Assembly (NCBI GenBank): GCA_024639335.1 | Contig: JAHEIN010000004.1 | Span: 1-49,699, forward strand | Length of the DNA: 49,699 bases | Source: a bacterium | GTDB lineage: Bacteria; Actinomycetota; Acidimicrobiia; Spongiisociales; ZC4RG35 | Direction of reading: 5' to 3' | In this document: piece after piece, positions 1-9,194 of the stretch | How positions within the stretch are numbered: the first letter of the stretch is position 1 | Layout: each line of letters starts with the position of its first letter | Translations under genes and position numbers: made by a program | Notes under the pieces: generated by a model | Database searches by the model: none | What the model saw: only the letters and a program-made list of their open reading frames with translations | What the model was told of the DNA's origin: nothing

Positions 1-667
1 GCTGGGTACGGACTCCTTCGGGGACGTTGGCGTCCGGAGCGACCGGGCGGGGGTTCACGATCGCAGCCCGGGCACCATTGCCACTCGACCCGCCGTTGGG
101 CGCCGGTGCAGGCGTTTCGGCCGGCTTCTCCTCGAGAGCAACGGCCGCCGGGGCCGGGGCCTCCGCCGCAGCGGCGGGGGCGGGGGGTGCGGCCCGCTCG
201 GGAGCGGGTGCTGGGGCTGGGGGGGCCGGCGTTTCGGTGGCAGCCGGGGCCGCGGGGGCCGGAGCGGCTTCGCCCGCCATCTCGGCGAGGACCGAGGCGA
301 CGGATACGCCGAGTGACTTGGCTTTGGCTTCGGCCGACCGTTTCACGAGAGATTCAGGAAGACCGCCGACCTCGGCCGCCTTCTTGAGGAGAGCATCGAC
401 GTCGACCTCCGCTGCGGGAGCCGAAGCCACGGGCTCGGGAGCAGCCGGAGCCGGAGCTGGTTCGTCATCGGCCGGCTCGGACGCCGGGGCTTCGGCGGGG
501 AGGGCACCGGGGTCCGGTACTTCCACCTCGGCAGCGGCTGCTGAGGGCGGCGGGGTGGGCGGCGCCTCGCCCTTCATCTCTGCGAGGACCTGCTCCACCG
601 GAAGGCCGAGCGCCTTGGCCTTCGCCTCGGCGGAGCGTCTGAGGAGATCTTCTGGGATGTCTGCCAT
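1..667 (-). CDS. 5' part (runs off window) of probable cytochrome b subunit IV-like (PetD/QcrC-type) protein with long N-terminal extension containing two copies of a 32-aa module and Pro/Ala linkers
   Basis: Absent from the ORF track because there is no stop in the window. Manual translation from ATG 667: MADIPEDLLRRSAEAKAKALGLPVEQVLAEMKGEA...LPESLVKRSAEAKAKSLGVSVASVLAEMAGEA...NVPEGVRTQ. SD-like GAGG upstream; starts 18 nt after the cytochrome b6 stop. The subunit IV identity is inferred from position only. Confidence 0.6.
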   Translation of the reverse strand, partial: MADIPEDLLRRSAEAKAKALGLPVEQVLAEMKGEAPPTPPPSAAAAEVEVPDPGALPAEAPASEPADDEPAPAPAAPEPVASAPAAEVDVDALLKKAAEVGGLPESLVKRSAEAKAKSLGVSVASVLAEMAGEAAPAPAAPAATETPAPPAPAPAPERAAPPAPAAAAEAPAPAAVALEEKPAETPAPAPNGGSSGNGARAAIVNPRPVAPDANVPEGVRTQ

Positions 668-685: not shown

Positions 686-1456
686 CTACAGCGGGCCGGA
701 GATACCGCCGTCCTTGCGGACCCGCCAGAAGTGGACCGCCATGAACAGCACGATGATGAACGGTAGGAACAGCACATGGAGCACGTACCAGCGCAGGATC
801 GTGCCGGCGGTGACCTCGGCGCCCGCCAGCAACGCGAACTTCACCTGTGCACCGAACACCGGAACGAATCCGGCCATGTTGGTGCCGACGGTGACCGCCC
901 ACAGCGCGAGTTGGTCCCACGGCAGCAGGTAGCCGGTGAACGACAGCAGAAGGGTCAGCAGCAGGAGGATGACGCCGACCACCCAGTTGAACTCACGCGG
1001 AGCCTTGTAGGCGCCGTGATAGAAGACCCGGCTCATGTGGAGAAAGACCACCAGCACCATGAGATGTGCGCCCCATCGATGCATGTTGCGGACCAACGAA
1101 CCAAACGCCACAGACGTCGACAACGCCTGGACGTCGGTGTAGGCGTTCTCGACCGTCGGGGCGTAATAGAACATCAGGAAGATGCCGGTGATGGTGAGGA
1201 GGATGAACAGGAAGAAGCTGAGTCCCCCGAGGCAGAGCGTGTAGCTCAGCTTGACGCCGTGGCGCTTCACCTTCACGGGGTGGAGGTGATACAACACATT
1301 GTTCATGATGACGTACGACCGGTTCCTCGGGCTGTCGGAGTAGCCCTTCTTGAACGGCGATCCGGGGCGCAGCACCGACTCGACGAAGCTGCTCGAGGCG
1401 AGCTTGTCGGTCGCTTCGGACAGCCGATCCTTCAAACTGGTGTTGCCATTCGCCAC
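686..1456 (-). CDS. petB: Cytochrome b6-like N-terminal cytochrome b subunit of a Rieske/cytochrome b complex
   Basis: Heme b ligands in [18 protein letters not shown] and [19 protein letters not shown] (14 residues between the His, b6 type), TLCLGG heme ci Cys, [17 protein letters not shown]-terminal GISGPL. Confidence 0.92.
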
Positions 1457-1468
1457 TCGTAGATCCTC

Positions 1469-1918
1469 CTACCAACGCATTCCGTATGAGTAACCGTTCT
1501 TGAAATCCCGCTGACCGGTGTCGACATCCCAGGGGCGGGCGTTGAGGCCGAGCTCGGCCGCTTGGTCGGCGAGCGAGCCCTCGAACTTGCCGAGAGAGAT
1601 CACGCCGGTCGGACAGCGGTCGATGCACAGCGCGCACCTGGTGCACTCGTTCTCGTCGACGACGAAGAACCCATAGTTGGATTCGTCCTCGTTGGGGTTG
1701 TCCACGTTGACCGCCTCGGTGATGGCATCGACACTCAGGTAGTGGATGCACTTCCACGGGCAGATGTCCACGCATCCCTCGCAGAGGATGCACTCGGCTT
1801 GATCGATGTGGAGAAACTGCTTCGGTCGGAGCTTGTCCTTGAAGTAATCGCCCTCGACGAGGGCGAGCTGGTAGTCGTCGCGGAACGGCGGTGTCTCGTC
1901 GACGATCCCCTTCGGCAT
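1469..1918 (-). CDS. 2x[4Fe-4S] dicluster ferredoxin-like protein
   Basis: CILCEGCVDICP and CTRCALCIDRCP motifs; start overlaps the upstream stop. Confidence 0.92.
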   Translation of the reverse strand: MPKGIVDETPPFRDDYQLALVEGDYFKDKLRPKQFLHIDQAECILCEGCVDICPWKCIHYLSVDAITEAVNVDNPNEDESNYGFFVVDENECTRCALCIDRCPTGVISLGKFEGSLADQAAELGLNARPWDVDTGQRDFKNGYSYGMRW

Positions 1919-2562
1919 CAGCGGTCACCCTTGACGAGCGTGCGGCCGTAGGGCGAGGTGACCTCGTCTGGAGCAGCGGCAGACTCGGGGCGCCCGCCGT
2001 AGACGTCCGGGATCTTGTAGGCGAACAAGCCACCGAGAACCAGCATCGCGAGGTTGTAGCCCATCGAGATGGAGTCTTTGATCACGGCCCAGCTGATGCT
2101 GATGTCGTTGCCGAGAACGAGGAACGACGGGATCGGGTCGAGGCCCGGCACCAGTCGCTGGCTGCTCCAATCGAGATCGGTCTGTGAGAAGTTGAGCCAT
2201 TCCGAGGGGACGATTCCGAAGATGACGACGAGTTCGAGCCACGCGAGTGTGGCGGCGATCGACGCCACCGCCCAGGACATCTTGCGGCCGAGTACGAACA
2301 GGAACGCCGCTCCGACCAACATCAGCTGCGAAGCGCCGAAAGCGATCACGTAGCCGAGCGCCTTCCACCAGATCCCCCGTGGCATCCAGTTGAGGAAATC
2401 GACTTGGAAAGGAACGAACTCGCCGTCGACGAGCTCCTCGACCGGGAACTGGGCCCAGTGGACGATGACCACGGCGATGACCATCGCCACGGTGCCCACC
2501 GCCAGCATGGCACTGCCATAGGTGATCCGTTGGCTGGGGCTGAGTTCGCCGAGTCGATACAT
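1918..2562 (-). CDS. Uncharacterised membrane protein (about 4 TM), first gene of the cytochrome b operon
   Basis: Hydrophobic segments; SD GGAGA before ATG 2562; coupled to the ferredoxin gene. Confidence 0.75.
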   Translation of the reverse strand: MYRLGELSPSQRITYGSAMLAVGTVAMVIAVVIVHWAQFPVEELVDGEFVPFQVDFLNWMPRGIWWKALGYVIAFGASQLMLVGAAFLFVLGRKMSWAVASIAATLAWLELVVIFGIVPSEWLNFSQTDLDWSSQRLVPGLDPIPSFLVLGNDISISWAVIKDSISMGYNLAMLVLGGLFAYKIPDVYGGRPESAAAPDEVTSPYGRTLVKGDR

Positions 2563-2744
2563 CAGGTCTCCTGGGTCTTTTCCCTGGTCGGGGCGAGATT
2601 CTAGTCATCCGATTCGACCTGACGGCAAAGCATCGGGAAGCCGACGTCGCACAGGTGAGCGACCAACGTCGTGACGCGAGATGTGAGGACGAGCGCCGCG
2701 ATGGCCAAGCTAACCTCGCCGGTGCCGCCGACACAGAGGTGAGG
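2563..2744. promoter_or_regulatory. Divergent promoter region between the cytochrome b operon and the cbb3-like operon
   Basis: Minus-strand TAGAAT (2598-2603) and plus-strand TAACCT (2711-2716) -10-like hexamers; SD GAGGTGAGG before GTG 2745. Confidence 0.5.
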
Positions 2745-4184
2745 GTGACCACAACAGCGACTGAACAACGGACCGGGCGTCGGGTCGCCACGGAGAACGT
2801 GGCCACCGCTCACCTTCTCGTGTCTTCAGCGTTCCTCGCTCTCGGCGGCGTGTTGACCGTCCTGTCGATGGCATCGGTGTCGTTCATCTCCCTCAGCGGC
2901 CCGTTGTCGTACGGCCGGCTGCGACCGATGACGATGTTGGTGGTCATGCTCGGCTGGCTCGTGCCCGCCTTCGCCGGGGTGGGGTATTACCTGCTCCCCC
3001 GACTCACCGGAACGCCGCTCTTTCAACCTCGCCTCGCAGGGCTCGGGCTCATCGGGACCTCGGGGCTCACGGTCCTGGGCGTCTTGTGGCTGTTCTTCGG
3101 GCTGGGAGACGGAATCGAACCGTTCGGGCTGCCGTGGTATCTCGACATCCTGATCTTGGGCGTGGTCTCGATTCCCGCCGTCGTGACGTTCGGCACCATC
3201 CGCAACCGCTCGGAAGAGAGCGTTTTCGCCTCGCTGTGGTTCGTGATGGCAGCGGTGCTCTGGCTCCCCGGCCTGGCGCTCGTCTCTGCGCTTCCGAACC
3301 TCGCCGCGATCGGGCGCCAGCTACAAGAGGTGGTCTTCTCCACCGGCTTCGGGACGCTGTGGGTGACGGCCATGGGCTTCGGTATCGCCTACTACGTGGC
3401 GGTGAAGCAGACCGACAACCCGCTCGCCAACCGTCAGGTGGCAAAAGCCGGCTTCTGGTCGCTCGCATTCTCCGGTGCGTTCCTCGGACCGGTCCAGATC
3501 GCTTTCGGCCCGACGCCCGACTGGCTCGACTCGGTGTCGGCCGTCCTGTCGCTCGCCCTCCCGGTGGCGGCGATCGCAACGGCTGCCGCAGTCGCAACGA
3601 CCGTCGCCGACGATTGGAGTGACGCTTCGGAGCGCCCGGCTCTCCTGGCCGTCGGGTACGGGCTCGCCTTGGCGATCGTCGCCTCGGTGCTCTCGGTCTT
3701 CGGTGCGTTCTCCTCTGCAGCAGCCCTCGTGGGCTTGAGCGCCTTCTGGGATGGCATTCAGTTCCTCGTTCTCTTCGGCGTGGGCGGCACGTTCCTCTCG
3801 GCATTCGCCTACCAGGCGATCCCCCCGATGACCGGGCGGCAAATCGACGACACCGGCAACGCCGGCCGGCAGATCAGACTGGTCGCCTGGGGTTCGCTGG
3901 GCACCGCAGTGTTCCTCGTCCTCGCCGGGATCCTGTCCGGGTTCTCCTGGACCGGTGGGTCGTACACCGGCTCGTACACCGATGCCGGCGAAGGGTGGGC
4001 CGAAGCCATGGCACTCCCCGATGTGTTGATCGGCGTCGCCGTGCTCGGGGCACTGGTCACCTTCGTGGGCCAACTCCTGTTCGTGCGCAACGTGACCTCC
4101 GCCATCACGAGCGGGACGGCCGGCGCCCAGGAGGTGCTGGTCTACACCCCGGTCTCCGACGATGACGACGGAGGGGACTCATGA
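2745..4184 (+). CDS. cbb3-type oxidase subunit I (CcoN)-fold membrane protein lacking heme/CuB histidine ligands
   Basis: CcoN-like landmarks SYGRLRP, YYLLPRLT, RSEESVFASLWF, YYVAVKQTDNPL, GFWSL, PTPDWL and about 12 TM, but only one His in the whole protein. Start placed at GTG 2745 after the SD. Confidence 0.82.
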   Translation: MTTTATEQRTGRRVATENVATAHLLVSSAFLALGGVLTVLSMASVSFISLSGPLSYGRLRPMTMLVVMLGWLVPAFAGVGYYLLPRLTGTPLFQPRLAGLGLIGTSGLTVLGVLWLFFGLGDGIEPFGLPWYLDILILGVVSIPAVVTFGTIRNRSEESVFASLWFVMAAVLWLPGLALVSALPNLAAIGRQLQEVVFSTGFGTLWVTAMGFGIAYYVAVKQTDNPLANRQVAKAGFWSLAFSGAFLGPVQIAFGPTPDWLDSVSAVLSLALPVAAIATAAAVATTVADDWSDASERPALLAVGYGLALAIVASVLSVFGAFSSAAALVGLSAFWDGIQFLVLFGVGGTFLSAFAYQAIPPMTGRQIDDTGNAGRQIRLVAWGSLGTAVFLVLAGILSGFSWTGGSYTGSYTDAGEGWAEAMALPDVLIGVAVLGALVTFVGQLLFVRNVTSAITSGTAGAQEVLVYTPVSDDDDGGDS

Positions 4185-4927
4185 GTGAAGTCGCCGCCGC
4201 TGCGGCTGCAATGAACATCCCCGAAGAGCTGGTCGAGCGCTCGGCCGCCGCCCGTGCGACAGCGGCCGGGTCCACTACCGAGGAAGTGATCGCCGCCTGG
4301 GCGGGAGGAGCTCCGGCGCCGGCGGCGGCTCCGCCACCCCCAGAGGAGCCGGCTCCCTCGGAAGCGGACGCTCCGACCGAGCCATTGCCCCCGACAGAGC
4401 CGATCACAGCCCCCGCGACAGAACCGGTGGAGCAACCGGCGGCGACGGCAGCGCCGGTGTCCATTGCGGCACCAACGGAGCCCCCGGTGCTCCAGGGACG
4501 AACGGAGCATCCGTTCCTGATCGCCGCGGGAGCAGCCGGGCTGCTCATCGTGGCGCTGCTGGTCGGCTTTCTCGCACCTGCCCTCCCGCAAGAAGGAAAC
4601 GGTGTGTACTCATCTGCGGTTCCCTTGACCGAGGCAGCGATCGAGGGACGTGAGGTGTATCGCAGTGAGGGCTGTTCGTCGTGTCACACTCAGTTGGTCC
4701 GGCCAATCGTCGCCGATGTCGGTCTGGGACCGGTGACGATCTCCGACAGCAACCAGGTTCTCGGCGTCCGGAGGTACGGGCCCGACTTGGCTCACGTCGG
4801 GAGCAGGGTCGAGTCACAATCGTCGCTGTTGTCGGTACTGACGGGTTCGAGCGATCATCCTTCGTACGGGGGGCTGTCGGACACCGACCTCGAGAACCTC
4901 ACCGCCTACCTGTTTCAATCGAAATGA
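4181..4927 (+). CDS. CcoO-like membrane-anchored monoheme cytochrome c with N-terminal module and Pro/Ala linker
   Basis: EGREVYRSEGCSSCHTQLVRP and RRYGPDLAHVGSR match CcoO motifs; one TM; ATGA overlap with the upstream gene. Confidence 0.85.
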   Translation: MSEVAAAAAAMNIPEELVERSAAARATAAGSTTEEVIAAWAGGAPAPAAAPPPPEEPAPSEADAPTEPLPPTEPITAPATEPVEQPAATAAPVSIAAPTEPPVLQGRTEHPFLIAAGAAGLLIVALLVGFLAPALPQEGNGVYSSAVPLTEAAIEGREVYRSEGCSSCHTQLVRPIVADVGLGPVTISDSNQVLGVRRYGPDLAHVGSRVESQSSLLSVLTGSSDHPSYGGLSDTDLENLTAYLFQSK

Positions 4928-4946: not shown

Positions 4947-5915
4947 ATGAGCGATCAACTGTCATCCGCAGCGCAGGCCATGGGCATTCCGGAGGAACTG
5001 GTCCAGCGGTCTGCCGCAGCACGAGCTGCCGCCGCCGGGACCGACACCGAGACGGTCATCGGCGCCTGGGCCGGGGGTCAGTCCGCTCCCGCCGCAGCGG
5101 CCCCCGAGACACCTGAGCCGTCAAAGGCCGAAGAGCCTGCTTCCGAGCCTGCGAGAAGCGCACCGGAGGCCCCAACGGCCGTCGAACCCTCCCAGACACC
5201 GGCTCCCGCTCCGGCGCCGATCACCCCGCCACCGACGCCATCGGTGGTCTCCCCCGAGGAGGCACTCGACCACGACGTCGTCGTGTCTGTCCCGACTGCA
5301 GGTTTGAAGGAGCGCACCTCGACGACCATTCCTCAGTGGCTGGTGGCTGCACTGCTGATCGTCCCTGCCTTTGGCCTCCTCTATCTCGCAAGCAATGGCA
5401 CCGCCGACGCCACGTGCTCGGAGACCGGAGTCGTGTTGCGGGTCGACCGCGCAACCGGCGCGCTGGAGAACTGCGACGGTTCGGAGTTCTCCGGCCGGGG
5501 CGGAGCTTCCGGTGGCGGCCTCGAGTTCATCACCCTGGGCCAGGAGCTGTATTCCACGTGCTCCGGCTGTCATGGGGTGAACGGAGGCGGCGGCGTGGGG
5601 CCGGCGTTCGGCGGCGTCCTCAACACGTTCGGTGCCTGCTCGGATCACATCGAGTGGGTTCGACTCGGATCCTCCGGTTATCTCGCTGCCGGGCGAAACA
5701 CCTACGGTGATCTCGGGACCTCGGTCGGCGGTGGGATGCCAGGATTTCCCAATCTCTCGGATGAGGAGATCGCTGCGGTCATCGCCTTCGAGCGGATCCG
5801 CTTCGGGGGCGGGGCGGTCGACGCCGAACTCGCCAACTGTGGGCTGATCGAGGCCGCAGACGCAGAAGGGGAGGCCCCTGGGGACGAGGCATCCGATCCG
5901 ATGACAGAAGGCTGA
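4947..5915 (+). CDS. Membrane-anchored monoheme cytochrome c with N-terminal module
   Basis: CSGCH heme motif, GGGMPGF distal Met, one TM (WLVAALLIVPAFGLLYL), four additional Cys. Confidence 0.85.
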   Translation: MSDQLSSAAQAMGIPEELVQRSAAARAAAAGTDTETVIGAWAGGQSAPAAAAPETPEPSKAEEPASEPARSAPEAPTAVEPSQTPAPAPAPITPPPTPSVVSPEEALDHDVVVSVPTAGLKERTSTTIPQWLVAALLIVPAFGLLYLASNGTADATCSETGVVLRVDRATGALENCDGSEFSGRGGASGGGLEFITLGQELYSTCSGCHGVNGGGGVGPAFGGVLNTFGACSDHIEWVRLGSSGYLAAGRNTYGDLGTSVGGGMPGFPNLSDEEIAAVIAFERIRFGGGAVDAELANCGLIEAADAEGEAPGDEASDPMTEG

Positions 5916-5947: not shown

Positions 5948-6193
5948 TCACCGTCTCAGCAGGCCCCGGACGATGTCGCGCGTCCCGAAGCTGCCTTCCG
6001 CGATGAGCTGACCCCCACTCGTCGTGAGCACCGGCACGCGCAGCCCGTACTCGACGACCAGCTCATCGTCGGTGTCGATGTCGACCACCTCGAGCTGACG
6101 CCCGAAGAGCTTCGCTACCCGACGAGCCCGAGGCAGAGCGGATTCACACAGGTGGCACGCGGGACGGGTGTAGAAAATCATCTCAGAAAACAT
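5948..6193 (-). CDS. Glutaredoxin-like protein (DUF836/NrdH-like)
   Basis: FYTRPACHLC, VDIDTDDELVVEYGLRVPVL. Confidence 0.85.
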   Translation of the reverse strand: MFSEMIFYTRPACHLCESALPRARRVAKLFGRQLEVVDIDTDDELVVEYGLRVPVLTTSGGQLIAEGSFGTRDIVRGLLRR

Positions 6194-6220
6194 TCAAGTG
6201 CATACCGCAAGGGTCCGATC

Positions 6221-6226
6221 TACAAT
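6221..6226 (+). promoter_or_regulatory. -10 element (TACAAT) of candidate ncRNA
   Basis: Near-consensus -10 lying 7 nt before the first base of a perfect hairpin; no plus-strand CDS follows. Confidence 0.55.
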
Positions 6227-6233
6227 GTGATTT

Positions 6234-6397
6234 GCCGGAGCTGTTCGCAGTTTCGGCCGAGAGAGGCAAGGACCGCCAGTCATGCCAGTTGGGCACAATG
6301 TCCCAAGGTGTGATCGGATAGCCTCCCAGCCCGCCCCACGGCGGTACCTCCACTCTCGAGGATGAGGCCTCCCCTGCCCCGGGAGGCTTCATCAATT
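6234..6397 (+). ncRNA. Candidate structured ncRNA, Ms1/6S-like architecture
   Basis: 5' hairpin GCCGGAGCUG-UUCG-CAGUUUCGGC. Long central stem (CGAGAG/CUCUCG, ACCGCC/GGCGGU, GUCAUGCC/GGUGUGAU, UUGGG/CCCAA) with an asymmetric C-rich bubble. 3' hairpin GAUGAGGCCUCCC/GGGAGGCUUCAUC. Confidence 0.65.
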
Positions 6398-6399
6398 CT
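6361..6399 (+). terminator. Terminator-like hairpin ending the candidate ncRNA
   Basis: 13-bp stem gatgaggcctccc/gggaggcttcatc followed by aattct. Confidence 0.5.
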
Positions 6400-6400
6400 G

Positions 6401-6519
6401 GGCCTGTCTCGCTCCGCTCGCCTCGGCCCGTTCTGGGTGATGGGTTCTCAGTCATGGGTCGTCGTGTCATGGCTCAGAACCCACAACCCACGACTCGCAA
6501 CCGCGAGGCGGCAGCCGAG
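6401..6519. repeat. REP-like palindromic intergenic element, copy 1
   Basis: ggcc..ctcgctccgctcgcctcggccc.gtt..ggttctcagt with tgggt/accca inverted heptamer-like units; similar to 17653-17710. Confidence 0.4.
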
Positions 6520-7401
6520 CTAGCGGACGCCGAACATGAGATCGCGGAGGTTCACGGGGGTGACGGCGAACGTCTCCGGGTCGATCGAGAGAGAGCCGAT
6601 CCGGAGCCCCTGCATGCCTTCACCGGCGTTGGTGCTCACTCGGAGCGCACCGTCGTCGTACTCGAGCCGGCCGAGTCCGAGACAGCCGCCATCGCCGTCT
6701 TGAACGCCGACGAGCATGCCGTGGAGTCTCGATTGTTCGAGAGCCGGGGGAAGTGTCGGAGCGAAGACGGTGGAGCGAACCCGCCAGCGCCCGAGCTCGG
6801 GTGCGAAGGCCTTCCGGAACGCAGCAGTCCGCCGTTCCGCTCGCTCGTCAGGCCCACTGGGGATGAGATCGGGATCGACCGGGATCGAGATGACCTCGAC
6901 CGAGAAGAAACGTTTCAACATCCCGCTGATCGGCTCCATCTCTGCGCCCCGCTGCATCGCCACCACGATGTCCGGCCTCACCAGTTCGGCCTTGTGATAC
7001 TTCAACGTCTCTCCGATCACACCAGAGACCACACTCGAGGTGTCGATGACCACGAGGTCGCACTCTTCTCGCGCACGACCAGCGAGGGCAGCGGTGGCGA
7101 TCGTCTGTTGGAGCACGAGCTTGTTGGGGGAGATTGCTCCGACGAAGTGGAGGGCATCCGCGTTTTCGAGCGAGTCGAGGTCGGCGTGGCTGCGCAGATA
7201 CTTCAGACCGACGCAGGCAGGCGGCCCGATGCGGCTGTTGCTGATGTCGGCGTCGACGAATCCCACCAACTTCCCGGCGTCCATCGCGGCTCGAGCACAG
7301 GCGAGCGCCATCGTCGTCTTCCCGGTATCCATGGCGCCGACGAACATGACGGAGTTGGACCCCACGACCTTCGAGACGACCTCGCTGTGCGCTTCGAACA
7401 T
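6520..7401 (-). CDS. Clp1/Grc3-family polynucleotide 5'-hydroxyl kinase
   Basis: Walker A VGAMDTGKTT, VDADISNSRIGPP, VVIDTS, LKYHKAELVRPD, ERAERR; leaderless TAGCAT-6nt-ATG. Confidence 0.8.
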   Translation of the reverse strand: MFEAHSEVVSKVVGSNSVMFVGAMDTGKTTMALACARAAMDAGKLVGFVDADISNSRIGPPACVGLKYLRSHADLDSLENADALHFVGAISPNKLVLQQTIATAALAGRAREECDLVVIDTSSVVSGVIGETLKYHKAELVRPDIVVAMQRGAEMEPISGMLKRFFSVEVISIPVDPDLIPSGPDERAERRTAAFRKAFAPELGRWRVRSTVFAPTLPPALEQSRLHGMLVGVQDGDGGCLGLGRLEYDDGALRVSTNAGEGMQGLRIGSLSIDPETFAVTPVNLRDLMFGVR

Positions 7402-7487
7402 GTGTCGATGCTACCGAGGGGACACGGCAGCTCCGTGGGTGCTCGCCCGATGGTGATTGTTCCCCGAGCGACGTAGCCTCGTCATCC

Positions 7488-8291
7488 ATGTCGCATGTGA
7501 GTTTTCTGTCGGACTTCGGCCTCACCGACGAATTCGTCGGAGTGGTCCACGGAGTCATCGCAAAACTGGCACCAGACACGACCGTCGTCGATGTCACGCA
7601 CGGCATCCCGAGAGGCGACGTTCGATCGGGCGCACTCGCGTTGGTGCGCGCCATTCAGTATCTGCCCGAAGGCGTGGTTCTGGCAGTCGTCGACCCCGGC
7701 GTTGGCACGAATCGCCGCGCGATCGCGGCCCAGACCGAGTCGAGAATGCTGTTCGTCGGTCCCGACAATGGGCTGCTGGGGCCGGCGGTTGCCACGATGG
7801 GTGGCGCCACGAAGATCGTCGAGTTGACCAACCCGGCGGCGCAGATCCCGAGCGTCGGTGCCACCTTCGCGGGCCGTGACATCTTCGGGCCGGCTGCTGC
7901 GCTGTTGGCGTCTGGTGAAGCGTCGGTCGATGATCTCGGGCCCGAGGTCGCACCCGACTCGGTGACTCCCCTCTTGATCCCCCTGCCTGAGATCGAACCG
8001 GGGCGGGTCGTTGGCGAGGCCTGGTGGGTCGACACCTTCGGCAACGTTCAATCCAACATCGGACCCGAAGACCTCGCGGTGGCCGGGATCACGCGAGCGG
8101 TCACGGTCACGGTGCGGGTCGGAGCCACCGAGCACGAGGTGCCATGGGTGGATGCATACGGTGACGTGGACGAGGGTGAACCGCTGTTGTACGTGGATTC
8201 GTCCGGCCTGATGGCCGTGGCCGTTCGGGCAGGCTCGGCGACGTCGTATTTCAATCTGGCAGCTGGGACGGCACTGACTCTGGTGGGTTGA
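7488..8291 (+). CDS. SAM hydroxide adenosyltransferase / DUF62 (chlorinase/fluorinase superfamily)
   Basis: FLSDFGLTDEFVG, DVTHGI, VVDPGVGTNRR, GPDNG, TFAGRDIFGP, DTFGN. Confidence 0.9.
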   Translation: MSHVSFLSDFGLTDEFVGVVHGVIAKLAPDTTVVDVTHGIPRGDVRSGALALVRAIQYLPEGVVLAVVDPGVGTNRRAIAAQTESRMLFVGPDNGLLGPAVATMGGATKIVELTNPAAQIPSVGATFAGRDIFGPAAALLASGEASVDDLGPEVAPDSVTPLLIPLPEIEPGRVVGEAWWVDTFGNVQSNIGPEDLAVAGITRAVTVTVRVGATEHEVPWVDAYGDVDEGEPLLYVDSSGLMAVAVRAGSATSYFNLAAGTALTLVG

Positions 8292-8373
8292 GAAGCTCGA
8301 CAGTCTGGTAGATGGCCGCTCCGGCGATCACGAGCAGGAGAACGATCACGACGATGGCGGTCGCTGGACGCAT
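8251..8373 (-). CDS. Small single-TM protein (40 aa)
   Basis: MRPATAIVVIVLLLVIAGAAIYQTVELLNPPESVPSQLPD; CACACT -10-like 7 nt before ATG; below the ORF-track cutoff; 41-nt convergent overlap with the DUF62 gene. Confidence 0.5.
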   Translation of the reverse strand: MRPATAIVVIVLLLVIAGAAIYQTVELLNPPESVPSQLPD

Positions 8374-8507
8374 TCCCCTCAGTGTGGACACTGCCGGGAT
8401 GTGATCAAAACCGAGTACGCCTCACAGAGGACCACCCTGCTCCGCAGCGTGCAGCGGTTGGGCCGATCGGCCCTCAAGTTTGGGGCGATTCGGTCGAAAA
8501 CCTCACT

Positions 8508-9194
8508 ATGCGTCACATTTTGCAGAGTTTTCTCACTCTGAGTGCAATCTTGGCGCTGACCGCTGCCGCACTCCCTGCTACAGCGACTCCAACAGACGAG
8601 GCAGAATTCGTCTCGCTCATCAATCAGAGTCGGGCCGCTGCCGGCCTTTCGGCACTGACCGTCTTCGCAGATCTCACCGACGACGCCCGCATCCACACCG
8701 CAGACATGATCGGTGCCGGCCGGGTCTTCCACAGCAGCAACGCCCAGCTCGGCTCCTACGCGACCGGTTGGTCGCTACTCGGCGAGAACGTCGGCATGGG
8801 CCCGAACCCCGCTCTGCTCCATCAGGCGTTCATGAACTCCGAGAGCCATCGATCGAACATCCTGGGTGACTACGACCTCGTCGGGGTCGGCGCCGATCGC
8901 TCGGCCGACGGTGTCATGTTCGTGACCGTTGTGTTCATGAGGACCGCTGCACCGCCGACCACCACGACCACCACCCCACCGCCGACCGTTCAACAGACGG
9001 CCGCCGAACCAACTCAGGTCGAGCCGTCGACCCTCGGCGCCGCCACCGGTTCCCGGCCGGCTTCCAAGGTCGCCGGCGCGGTCAACGACCGGACGTTCGA
9101 GGTGTTCCGGCCGGTGTTCTCCCTGTTGAGTTCGGCCGGGGGCGACCCCATCGTCCGATTCACGTCGAACGGGACCCGAGTCATCATCGAGTGA
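8508..9194 (+). CDS. Secreted CAP (SCP-like) domain protein with Thr/Pro-rich tail
   Basis: Signal peptide, INQSRAAAGL, HTADM, GENVG, FMNSESHRSNIL. Confidence 0.85.
   Translation: MRHILQSFLTLSAILALTAAALPATATPTDEAEFVSLINQSRAAAGLSALTVFADLTDDARIHTADMIGAGRVFHSSNAQLGSYATGWSLLGENVGMGPNPALLHQAFMNSESHRSNILGDYDLVGVGADRSADGVMFVTVVFMRTAAPPTTTTTTPPPTVQQTAAEPTQVEPSTLGAATGSRPASKVAGAVNDRTFEVFRPVFSLLSSAGGDPIVRFTSNGTRVIIE

Follow-up and report, generated by a model that had tools for sequence, protein, structure and literature searches.

The histidine ligands of subunit I are treated as an invariant signature of the heme-copper oxidases (HCOs), and the locus described here raises the question of what such a subunit can be kept for once none of them is left. 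The locus lies in contig JAHEIN010000004.1, a stretch of 49,699 nucleotides (the window) that is the entire contig C285 of a 3.2-Mb metagenome-assembled genome from the class Acidimicrobiia (GCA_024639335.1, completeness 91.6%). An earlier note, made from the letters of the window alone, had described the gene at 2745-4184 as a homologue of CcoN, subunit I of the cbb3 oxidases, with a single His and no heme or copper ligands. We call its product pseudo-CcoN and present evidence that it descends from CcoN, that the ligands are gone throughout its close relatives, that the gene is under purifying selection, and that it stands head-to-head with a Rieske/cytochrome b6 (b6c) operon, which would fit a scaffold for c-type cytochromes.

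Homology to CcoN and loss of the metal ligands

Pseudo-CcoN matches the HCO subunit I family PF00115 over profile positions 2-414 of 436 (E 3.6e-34; 118.8 bits, cut-off 34.8), which places it in the superfamily, and scores 97.2 bits with the ccoN equivalog model TIGR00780, far below the cut-off of 583.15. A PDB search with the single sequence returned five chains, among them 6xkw_n from the bc1-cbb3 supercomplex of Rhodobacter capsulatus. All were cbb3 CcoN chains and the best was 3mk7_A (E 6e-16), on which pseudo-CcoN aligns along residues 14-464, nearly the whole chain. A profile of 64 family members likewise found cbb3 CcoN chains only at E<=1e-3 (best 3mk7_A, E 3.9e-45). Since neither query gave an E of 1e-3 or better with any PDB chain of NorB, the A family or the B family, pseudo-CcoN is, judged by its sequence, a C-family HCO subunit I homologue. 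NorB (cNOR/qNOR) membership does not fit a protein whose PDB matches are CcoN only and which has no His ligands. The earlier description as a full-length cbb3 subunit I homologue therefore stands. Its figure of about 12 transmembrane (TM) helices agrees with the full-length alignment to CcoN, from which we also take the number 12, whereas hydropathy alone reveals about 10 strong hydrophobic segments.

The reading frame is uninterrupted from a GTG at 2745, which has AGGTGA just 5' of it, through 479 codons; a second possible start is the GTG at 2655. The database gene call (P0002, 479 aa) is identical to this frame, and its G+C content at third codon positions (0.82) indicates that it is coding. 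The stop codon shares four bases with the ATG of the next frame (4181-4927), so that the frame is both intact and coupled to its neighbour, as the earlier note had it. A search for sequencing datasets gave nine of DNA type, from four studies of sediment and soil metagenomes, and none of RNA type, which is uninformative on expression.

We mapped the ligand positions with HMMER alignments to 3mk7_A, counting residue numbers on the printed alignment. In that chain we take H60 and H347 to be the low-spin heme b ligands, H345 the heme b3 ligand, H207, H257 and H258 the CuB ligands, and Y251 the cross-linked active-site Tyr. H60 falls on T63 of pseudo-CcoN (RLRPLH/RLRPMT), Y251 on G244, H257 and H258 on V250 and Q251, and H345 and H347 on L341 and L343 in the pairwise alignment or on I338 and F340 in the profile alignment, the latter corresponding to GHVH/GIQF. 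H207 lies opposite F202 or T200; by the profile, its WYGHN segment is an insertion absent from the family, the ligand-less proteins being deleted where canonical CcoN carries it. Three of the four motif pairings proposed earlier were thus reproduced, while the WYGHN pairing was a few residues off. The protein contains one His (H23, in ATAHLL), no Cys, eight Met and two Lys. No His occurs anywhere in the ligand regions, and the loss is therefore independent of alignment detail. In relatives, the residues that substitute the ligands are mostly hydrophobic (T/A, F/L, V/A, L/I), and the Y251 column, which is Tyr in 96% of the 28 canonical rows compared, is without a majority residue among 87 ligand-less rows. 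From these replacements it follows that, by known HCO chemistry, pseudo-CcoN cannot act as an O2 or NO reductase. The same conclusion in the earlier note is supported by the ligand loss, the relatives, the ratio of non-synonymous to synonymous substitution (dN/dS) and the presence of a separate oxidase, as described below.

A comparison of the same 87 ligand-less and 28 canonical rows on the same profile columns shows what else has changed. Non-ligand columns that are at least 85% conserved in the canonical rows drop to 18-60% in the ligand-less ones (for example T208, A233, A310, E125 and A282, in window numbering). We take these canonical-only columns to include K-channel and Ca-site residues, and on that assignment the proton-channel and Ca-site residues of canonical CcoN would not be retained in pseudo-CcoN. 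The ligand-less rows have conserved columns of their own, mostly Gly/Pro together with R86, R323 and E463. Both sets share P48, G57, R58, G119, W165, YY216/217, FW237/238, P256, W260, T332 and several Gly; by CcoN topology, these shared positions would lie mostly in loops, many of them on the outer face, the docking side for CcoO and CcoP in cbb3. Throughout the ligand-less rows, none of the polar or charged TM columns is conserved. In the 64-row clade of the window protein (see below), conservation stays below 80% in every Met, Cys or Lys column. H23 is the only frequent His column, present in 55 of the 64 rows and missing in many fused forms and in family f12, and Tyr81/82 and Tyr216/217 are conserved in the family. 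No new active site is evident from these columns.

Relatives, distribution and selection

A word-indexed search with pseudo-CcoN returned 117 homologues, whose source labels name Acidimicrobiia and read 'cbb3-type cytochrome c oxidase subunit I'. The ligands are absent in all of P0003-P0109 (33-89% identity), which carry 0-8 His each, and full-length relatives without any His exist (for example P0028). An exhaustive profile search of 1.84 billion representatives (50%-identity clusters) gave 2069 matches at E<=1e-3 and 316 clusters at E<=1e-30. Among the best 150 matches, canonical CcoN with all six His are first met at about E 1e-67 and from there on are mixed with ligand-less CcoN-CcoO fusions. 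We built a quick FastTree tree of 140 rows (drawn from the top 150 representatives and selected further rows, and limited to rows with at least 380 filled columns) and scored the ligands by a lax rule of +/-3 columns: 87 rows lack the ligands, 28 have all of them and 25 are partial. The window protein falls in a clade of 64 rows (SH-like support 98), 59 of them ligand-less and five 'partial'. The ligand-less family would accordingly represent a cofactor-less branch of the C-family HCOs; since the backbone of the tree is poorly resolved, we make no claim as to whether the ligands were lost once or several times.

A single-sequence scan of genome contigs yielded four close loci, and wider sampling came from a genome search with the family profile. 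At E<=1e-20, 119 of 301 sampled genomes of the class match. Matches occur in 34 of 35 genomes of the window's own family (f1), 6 of 9 in f2, 13 of 16 in f3, 7 of 7 in f4, 2 of 3 in f5, 2 of 2 in f7, 1 of 1 in each of f8, f13 and f16, and 51 of 65 in f12, a family with genomes of ~1 Mb; the other 38 families have none. The ligands are missing from all 20 class loci that we fetched, the sole vestige being a His at the H257 column in one of them (L045), and from all 35 further loci. Neither these loci nor P0003-P0109 include an orthologue with intact ligands in the window's clade, the kind of sequence that the earlier note had named as a possible sign of recent decay.

Of 301 genomes sampled from the phylum, 31 match the family profile, and eight loci were fetched from classes other than Acidimicrobiia. 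Three (L067-L069) are canonical CcoN with all ligands; three from f56 (L065, L066 and L072) keep a His solely at the H347 column; one (L070, G303:C5) keeps His only at the heme-b columns H60 and H347; and one from f58 (L071) has no ligand His. These partial-ligand loci indicate that graded degenerate forms of CcoN exist in other classes of Actinomycetota.

Nei-Gojobori estimates of dN/dS for pseudo-CcoN, obtained at a dS of ~0.95 that is near saturation, are 0.09-0.10 against three orthologues of 84-87% identity and 0.165 against one of 72%. Among genes of the adjacent operon, cytochrome b6 has a dN/dS of 0.016-0.032, the ferredoxin 0.008-0.041 and memb214 0.07-0.14. A ratio of ~0.1, not near 1, speaks against recent decay, which was another check that the earlier note had proposed. 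These comparisons show an old, maintained ligand loss and a gene under purifying selection.

Cytochrome c partners and the b6c operon

The gene that overlaps pseudo-CcoN encodes a CcoO-like monoheme cytochrome c. This protein starts with a cytoplasmic N-terminal module, which a Pro/Ala-rich linker joins to a single TM segment (about residues 108-139), and carries CSSCH, RYGPDL and a distal HPSY. By sequence, the adjacent CcoO with TM anchor and heme c that belongs to a cbb3 oxidase is present, and CxxCH is kept in 25 of 25 aligned orthologues. The following gene encodes a membrane-anchored cytochrome c that begins with the same N-terminal module, has a TM segment at about residues 126-153 as its only one, and contains CSGCH and MPGF; with one CxxCH and one PF13442 domain, it is not a diheme CcoP. 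The cytochrome partners are therefore kept, as had been noted earlier. In 9 of the 20 fetched loci the CcoN-like and CcoO-like proteins are fused in one frame of 643-715 aa, eight of them with CxxCH, and we take these fusions to argue that the two proteins form a physical complex.

The distal heme ligand differs among families (loci L003-L006 and L037-L056). Fused forms (f2, f3, f7, f13, f16) carry MPSY or near variants, f1 (including the window), f5, f8 and f12 carry HPSY, HPNY or HPKY, and one f4 locus has QPSY. This apparent Met-to-His switch should alter the heme potential.

The strongest clue to the role of pseudo-CcoN is one that the earlier note did not contain. Upstream, on the opposite strand, begins an operon for memb214 (a membrane protein without Pfam or NCBIfam match), a ferredoxin, cytochrome b6 and a PetD-like protein, and in relatives and on contig C40 of the same genome this b6c operon goes on with PetD, a Rieske protein and a 630-aa cytochrome c. 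(The PetD-like frame, cut by the end of the window, continues on C40 with a near-identical overlap of ~160 residues, so that C285 and C40 probably join.) By tblastn, 18 of 20 fetched loci, which represent 11 families, have the pseudo-CcoN operon head-to-head with memb214-ferredoxin-cytochrome b6-PetD-Rieske-cytochrome c, an order that persists where identity of the CcoN-like protein is down to ~25%. Inspection by eye of 14 further genomes placed the first genes of the two operons 157-387 bp apart on opposite strands in all 14. The non-class copies of f56 and f58 lie 5-7 kb from the ferredoxin-cytochrome b6 operon.

Nearly all of the class has the b6c operon, and memb214-like matches were obtained from 262 of 301 genomes. 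Of the five genomes without pseudo-CcoN that were fetched, three have a monoheme cytochrome c as the divergent neighbour of this operon and two a geranylgeranyl-reductase-like gene. As a homologue of the downstream cytochrome c diverges from the b6 operon even where pseudo-CcoN is missing, the CcoN/CcoO pair may be read either as an accessory added to a locus of b6c plus cytochrome c or as a remnant beside it. An N-terminal TM segment with an invariant His35 is present in memb214 of 22 of 22 genomes with the CcoN/CcoO module and 0 of 5 without, these genomes being related and the counts not independent. The memb214 homologues of module-less genomes (L058-L062) have no N-terminal TM/His, or an unrelated N-terminus. 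We considered an inter-subunit bis-His heme between His23 of pseudo-CcoN and His35 of memb214; this was not supported, His23 being missing in L037, L041-L044, L047 and L049-L052.

A further link is an N-terminal motif of ~35 aa (IPEELV.RSA.ARA...G...E.V) that opens the CcoO-like protein, the cytochrome c and, twice, the PetD-like protein, followed by a Pro/Ala-rich linker and a TM segment. A hidden Markov model built from the four window copies and run on the six-frame translation of the genome found, at E<1e-10, only four proteins: the PetD-like protein (two copies, including its C40 continuation), the CcoO-like protein, the cytochrome c and a 398-aa multi-TM protein encoded ~5 kb from the caa3 oxidase operon (E 5e-11; next match E 0.04). 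The module matches no Pfam family at E<=5, and the caa3-linked membrane protein matches none either.

The rest of the respiratory chain was surveyed in the same genome, in which absences are qualified by the completeness given above. The only canonical HCO found is an A-type caa3 encoded elsewhere, with a cytochrome c domain on subunit II, COX3 and CtaG, which answers the earlier question of a separate intact oxidase. The b6 of this locus is the only cytochrome b found, cytochrome bd was not found, and the one FixO match is the CcoO-like gene described here. Of the cbb3 assembly genes ccoGHIS, those for the assembly factors FixH and FixS were searched for; neither was found in this genome, the incompleteness of which leaves their absence unproven, and no ccoQ was seen.

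Proposed role, alternatives and known systems

We propose that pseudo-CcoN is a selectively maintained descendant of cbb3 CcoN which, with its catalytic Tyr and its heme b, heme b3 and CuB ligands gone, would sit in a membrane complex with the CcoO-like protein and, probably, the downstream CcoP-like monoheme cytochrome c. The c-hemes would be the sole redox centres of this complex. The 12-helix protein, its cofactor pocket presumably empty, would serve them as a membrane scaffold, mainly through outer-face loops. The whole would form an accessory of the respiratory chain around the Rieske/cytochrome b6 complex, keeping membrane-anchored c-cytochromes between that complex and the caa3 oxidase. 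As a complete mechanism, a cofactor-less scaffold of a c-cytochrome module in a b6c-to-caa3 chain appears to us on balance probable, with modest confidence. Among the repurposed roles suggested earlier, the evidence favours the scaffold; a canonical proton channel is disfavoured by the lost columns, and a quinone site finds no support. A bolder version, which we regard as possible but doubtful, makes pseudo-CcoN the fossil of a cbb3 oxidase once coupled to b6c and now an adaptor that joins b6c, the two c-cytochromes and caa3 in an obligate supercomplex, with the N-terminal module as common assembly handle. If true, this would be the first HCO subunit I known to work without heme and without copper.

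Several observations weigh against the scaffold proposal. The dN/dS of pseudo-CcoN is 3-6 times that of cytochrome b6 or the ferredoxin (at a dS of ~0.95, near saturation), and the matches in G028 (C9:67672-69078), G154 (C11:9110-10471) and G089 (C1:1003110-1003862) contain an in-frame TGA, with an in-frame stop of unidentified codon in L025. The His distal ligand of the CcoO-like protein in the window's lineage probably lowers the heme potential, a poorer fit to a relay towards caa3. In L042 and L043 some 4 kb separate the module from the b6 operon, and memb214 is missing; most other families of the class have the b6c operon without the CcoN module, which is therefore not needed for b6c function as such. 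Finally, the fairly conserved His23 is left without explanation. The in-frame stops interrupt otherwise full-length matches and could be sequencing errors or lineage-specific loss.

Several other explanations were weighed. The CcoN/CcoO/cytochrome c module could be independent of b6c, for instance a stand-alone c-cytochrome anchor for another pathway that shares only its regulation with the b6 operon. The many families with a b6c operon but no module would suit this, as would the 4-7 kb that separate the two in L042, L043, L065, L066, L071 and L072 and a His/His heme, which would serve a lower-potential path. We nevertheless hold it unlikely, given a head-to-head adjacency held to ~25% CcoN-like identity, an N-terminal module common to the PetD-like and the caa3-adjacent proteins, and the co-occurrence of the module with His35 of memb214, even if the latter counts come from related genomes. 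We give equally little credence to pseudo-CcoN as a neofunctionalised membrane protein, whose old heme/Cu cavity conducts protons or ions or binds a quinone or another small molecule, the c-cytochromes being secondary. Purifying selection on a 12-TM protein even in ~1-Mb genomes agrees with such a function, and so do the Gln that recurs at the H258 column in the window's family (GPxQ) and the His23 in TM1. On the other hand, the canonical non-ligand columns are lost, including those taken as K-channel and Ca-site, no polar or charged TM column runs through the family, its own conservation is mostly Gly/Pro, and the ligands have given way mostly to hydrophobic residues.

That a heme or metal is still bound through non-His ligands, with some redox or catalytic activity kept, is quite improbable. 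The conserved Tyr81/82 and Tyr216/217 might be called upon, but YY216/217 are conserved in canonical CcoN too and are no ligand there. Apart from H23, which lies outside the canonical pocket, no Met, Cys, Lys or His column reaches 80%, and some full-length members, such as P0028, have no His at all. Least credible of all is a cbb3 gene that was inactivated recently and is being lost: the stops in G028, G154, G089 and L025 would be expected of it, but the low dN/dS, an intact frame that overlaps the next gene, and a ligand-less state common to many families down to 25-33% identity make it hardly tenable.

The proposed scaffold complex can be set beside several known systems. With the CcoNOP oxidase of Pseudomonas stutzeri (3mk7) the locus shares a full-length CcoN alignment, the gene order N-O-(P-like) and a CcoO-like protein that keeps the TM anchor, CxxCH and R.GPDL; N-O fusions also occur among some annotated cbb3 genes (NF011053). 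It differs in a CcoN without its six His and Tyr (97 bits against 583 with TIGR00780), in a monoheme third subunit, in the missing ccoQ, and in the distal ligand of the CcoO-like protein, which is His in the window's lineage but Met in fused relatives. The bc1-cbb3 supercomplex (6xkw) and the actinobacterial bcc-aa3 supercomplex each link a Rieske/cytochrome b complex to an HCO module by way of membrane-anchored c-cytochromes. In both, however, the HCO is an active terminal oxidase, whereas pseudo-CcoN would be cofactor-less and its association with b6c is suggested by gene linkage only. The peptidase-like core proteins of mitochondrial complex III are catalytically dead subunits kept as structure; they too show an enzyme fold selected after its catalytic residues were lost, although fold and complex are unrelated and the parallel is an analogy only.

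Also within the superfamily are the eNOR, bNOR, sNOR, gNOR and nNOR families, mined HCOs without the active-site Tyr that had been mis-annotated as oxygen reductases, as stated in the preprint of Murali et al. (10.1101/2021.10.15.464467). According to that preprint, the active-site His are fully conserved in all HCO families but gNOR, the first with one replaced. Pseudo-CcoN resembles these families in superfamily, lost Tyr and oxygen-reductase label. Unlike them, which keep hemes and a metal site and show kinship with the B family or qNOR, it has all His replaced and no catalytic site, and is related to the C family. Our literature search met no description of a ligand-less CcoN/HCO family or of a b6c-linked module, subscription journals being outside its coverage and the supplementary tables of HCO surveys a place where such sequences might be listed. 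The accessible parts of 10.64898/2026.01.22.701106 and PMC5600118 describe no such family, and those of PMC12175321 and PMC8819061 are not concerned with Acidimicrobiia oxidases.

A large maintained family without any ligand His would show that the HCO fold can be kept for a non-catalytic job, and would confront bioenergetics with a complex III accessory module of a new kind. A practical consequence concerns annotation. The database label of pseudo-CcoN as a cbb3 oxidase is misleading. Where genomes of Acidimicrobiia and some other Actinomycetota are taken to indicate high-affinity, microaerobic respiration, the protein behind the claim may therefore be one that cannot reduce O2; the one canonical oxidase detected in the present genome is caa3.

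Features of the pseudo-CcoN locus and sites of the N-terminal module; positions refer to the window unless another contig (C40, C223) of the same genome is named
Feature	Position	Strand	Length	Remarks
PetD/subunit-IV-like protein, N-terminal part	2..667	-		two N-terminal modules; runs off contig end
Cytochrome b6-type cytochrome b	686..1456	-	256 aa	PF00033 160 bits; NF040969 305.7 bits (cut-off 290)
2x[4Fe-4S] ferredoxin subunit	1469..1918	-	149 aa	no signal peptide or TM
memb214, membrane protein of no known family	1918..2562	-	214 aa	first gene of b6c operon
Intergenic region between divergent operons	2563..2744	.	182 bp	presumed shared control region
pseudo-CcoN	2745..4184	+	479 aa	C-family HCO subunit I homologue by sequence; six His ligands and cross-link Tyr lost
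CcoO-like monoheme cytochrome c	4181..4927	+	248 aa	PF02433 41.6 bits (cut-off 29.6)
Membrane-anchored monoheme cytochrome c, CcoP-like domain	4947..5915	+	322 aa	PF13442 27.7 bits (cut-off 27)
Glutaredoxin-like protein	5948-6193	-		PF05768
CLP1_P P-loop protein	6520-7401	-		PF16575
SAM hydroxide adenosyltransferase	7488-8291	+		PF01887/PF20257
CAP-domain protein	8382-9194	+		PF00188
N-terminal module, CcoO-like protein	4181-4330
N-terminal module, cytochrome c	4947-5096
N-terminal module, PetD-like protein	2-667	-		
N-terminal module, other contigs	C223:29126-30514; C40:42114-43100

The genes downstream of the cytochrome c (5948-9194) appear unrelated to respiration. In the b6c operon of the class, the gene for the soluble ferredoxin always lies just upstream of cytochrome b6, and cytochrome b6 carries TLCLGG near its N-terminus, a location that we take to be the place of the heme ci Cys in b6f; a ferredoxin-linked n-side path into b6 is conceivable.

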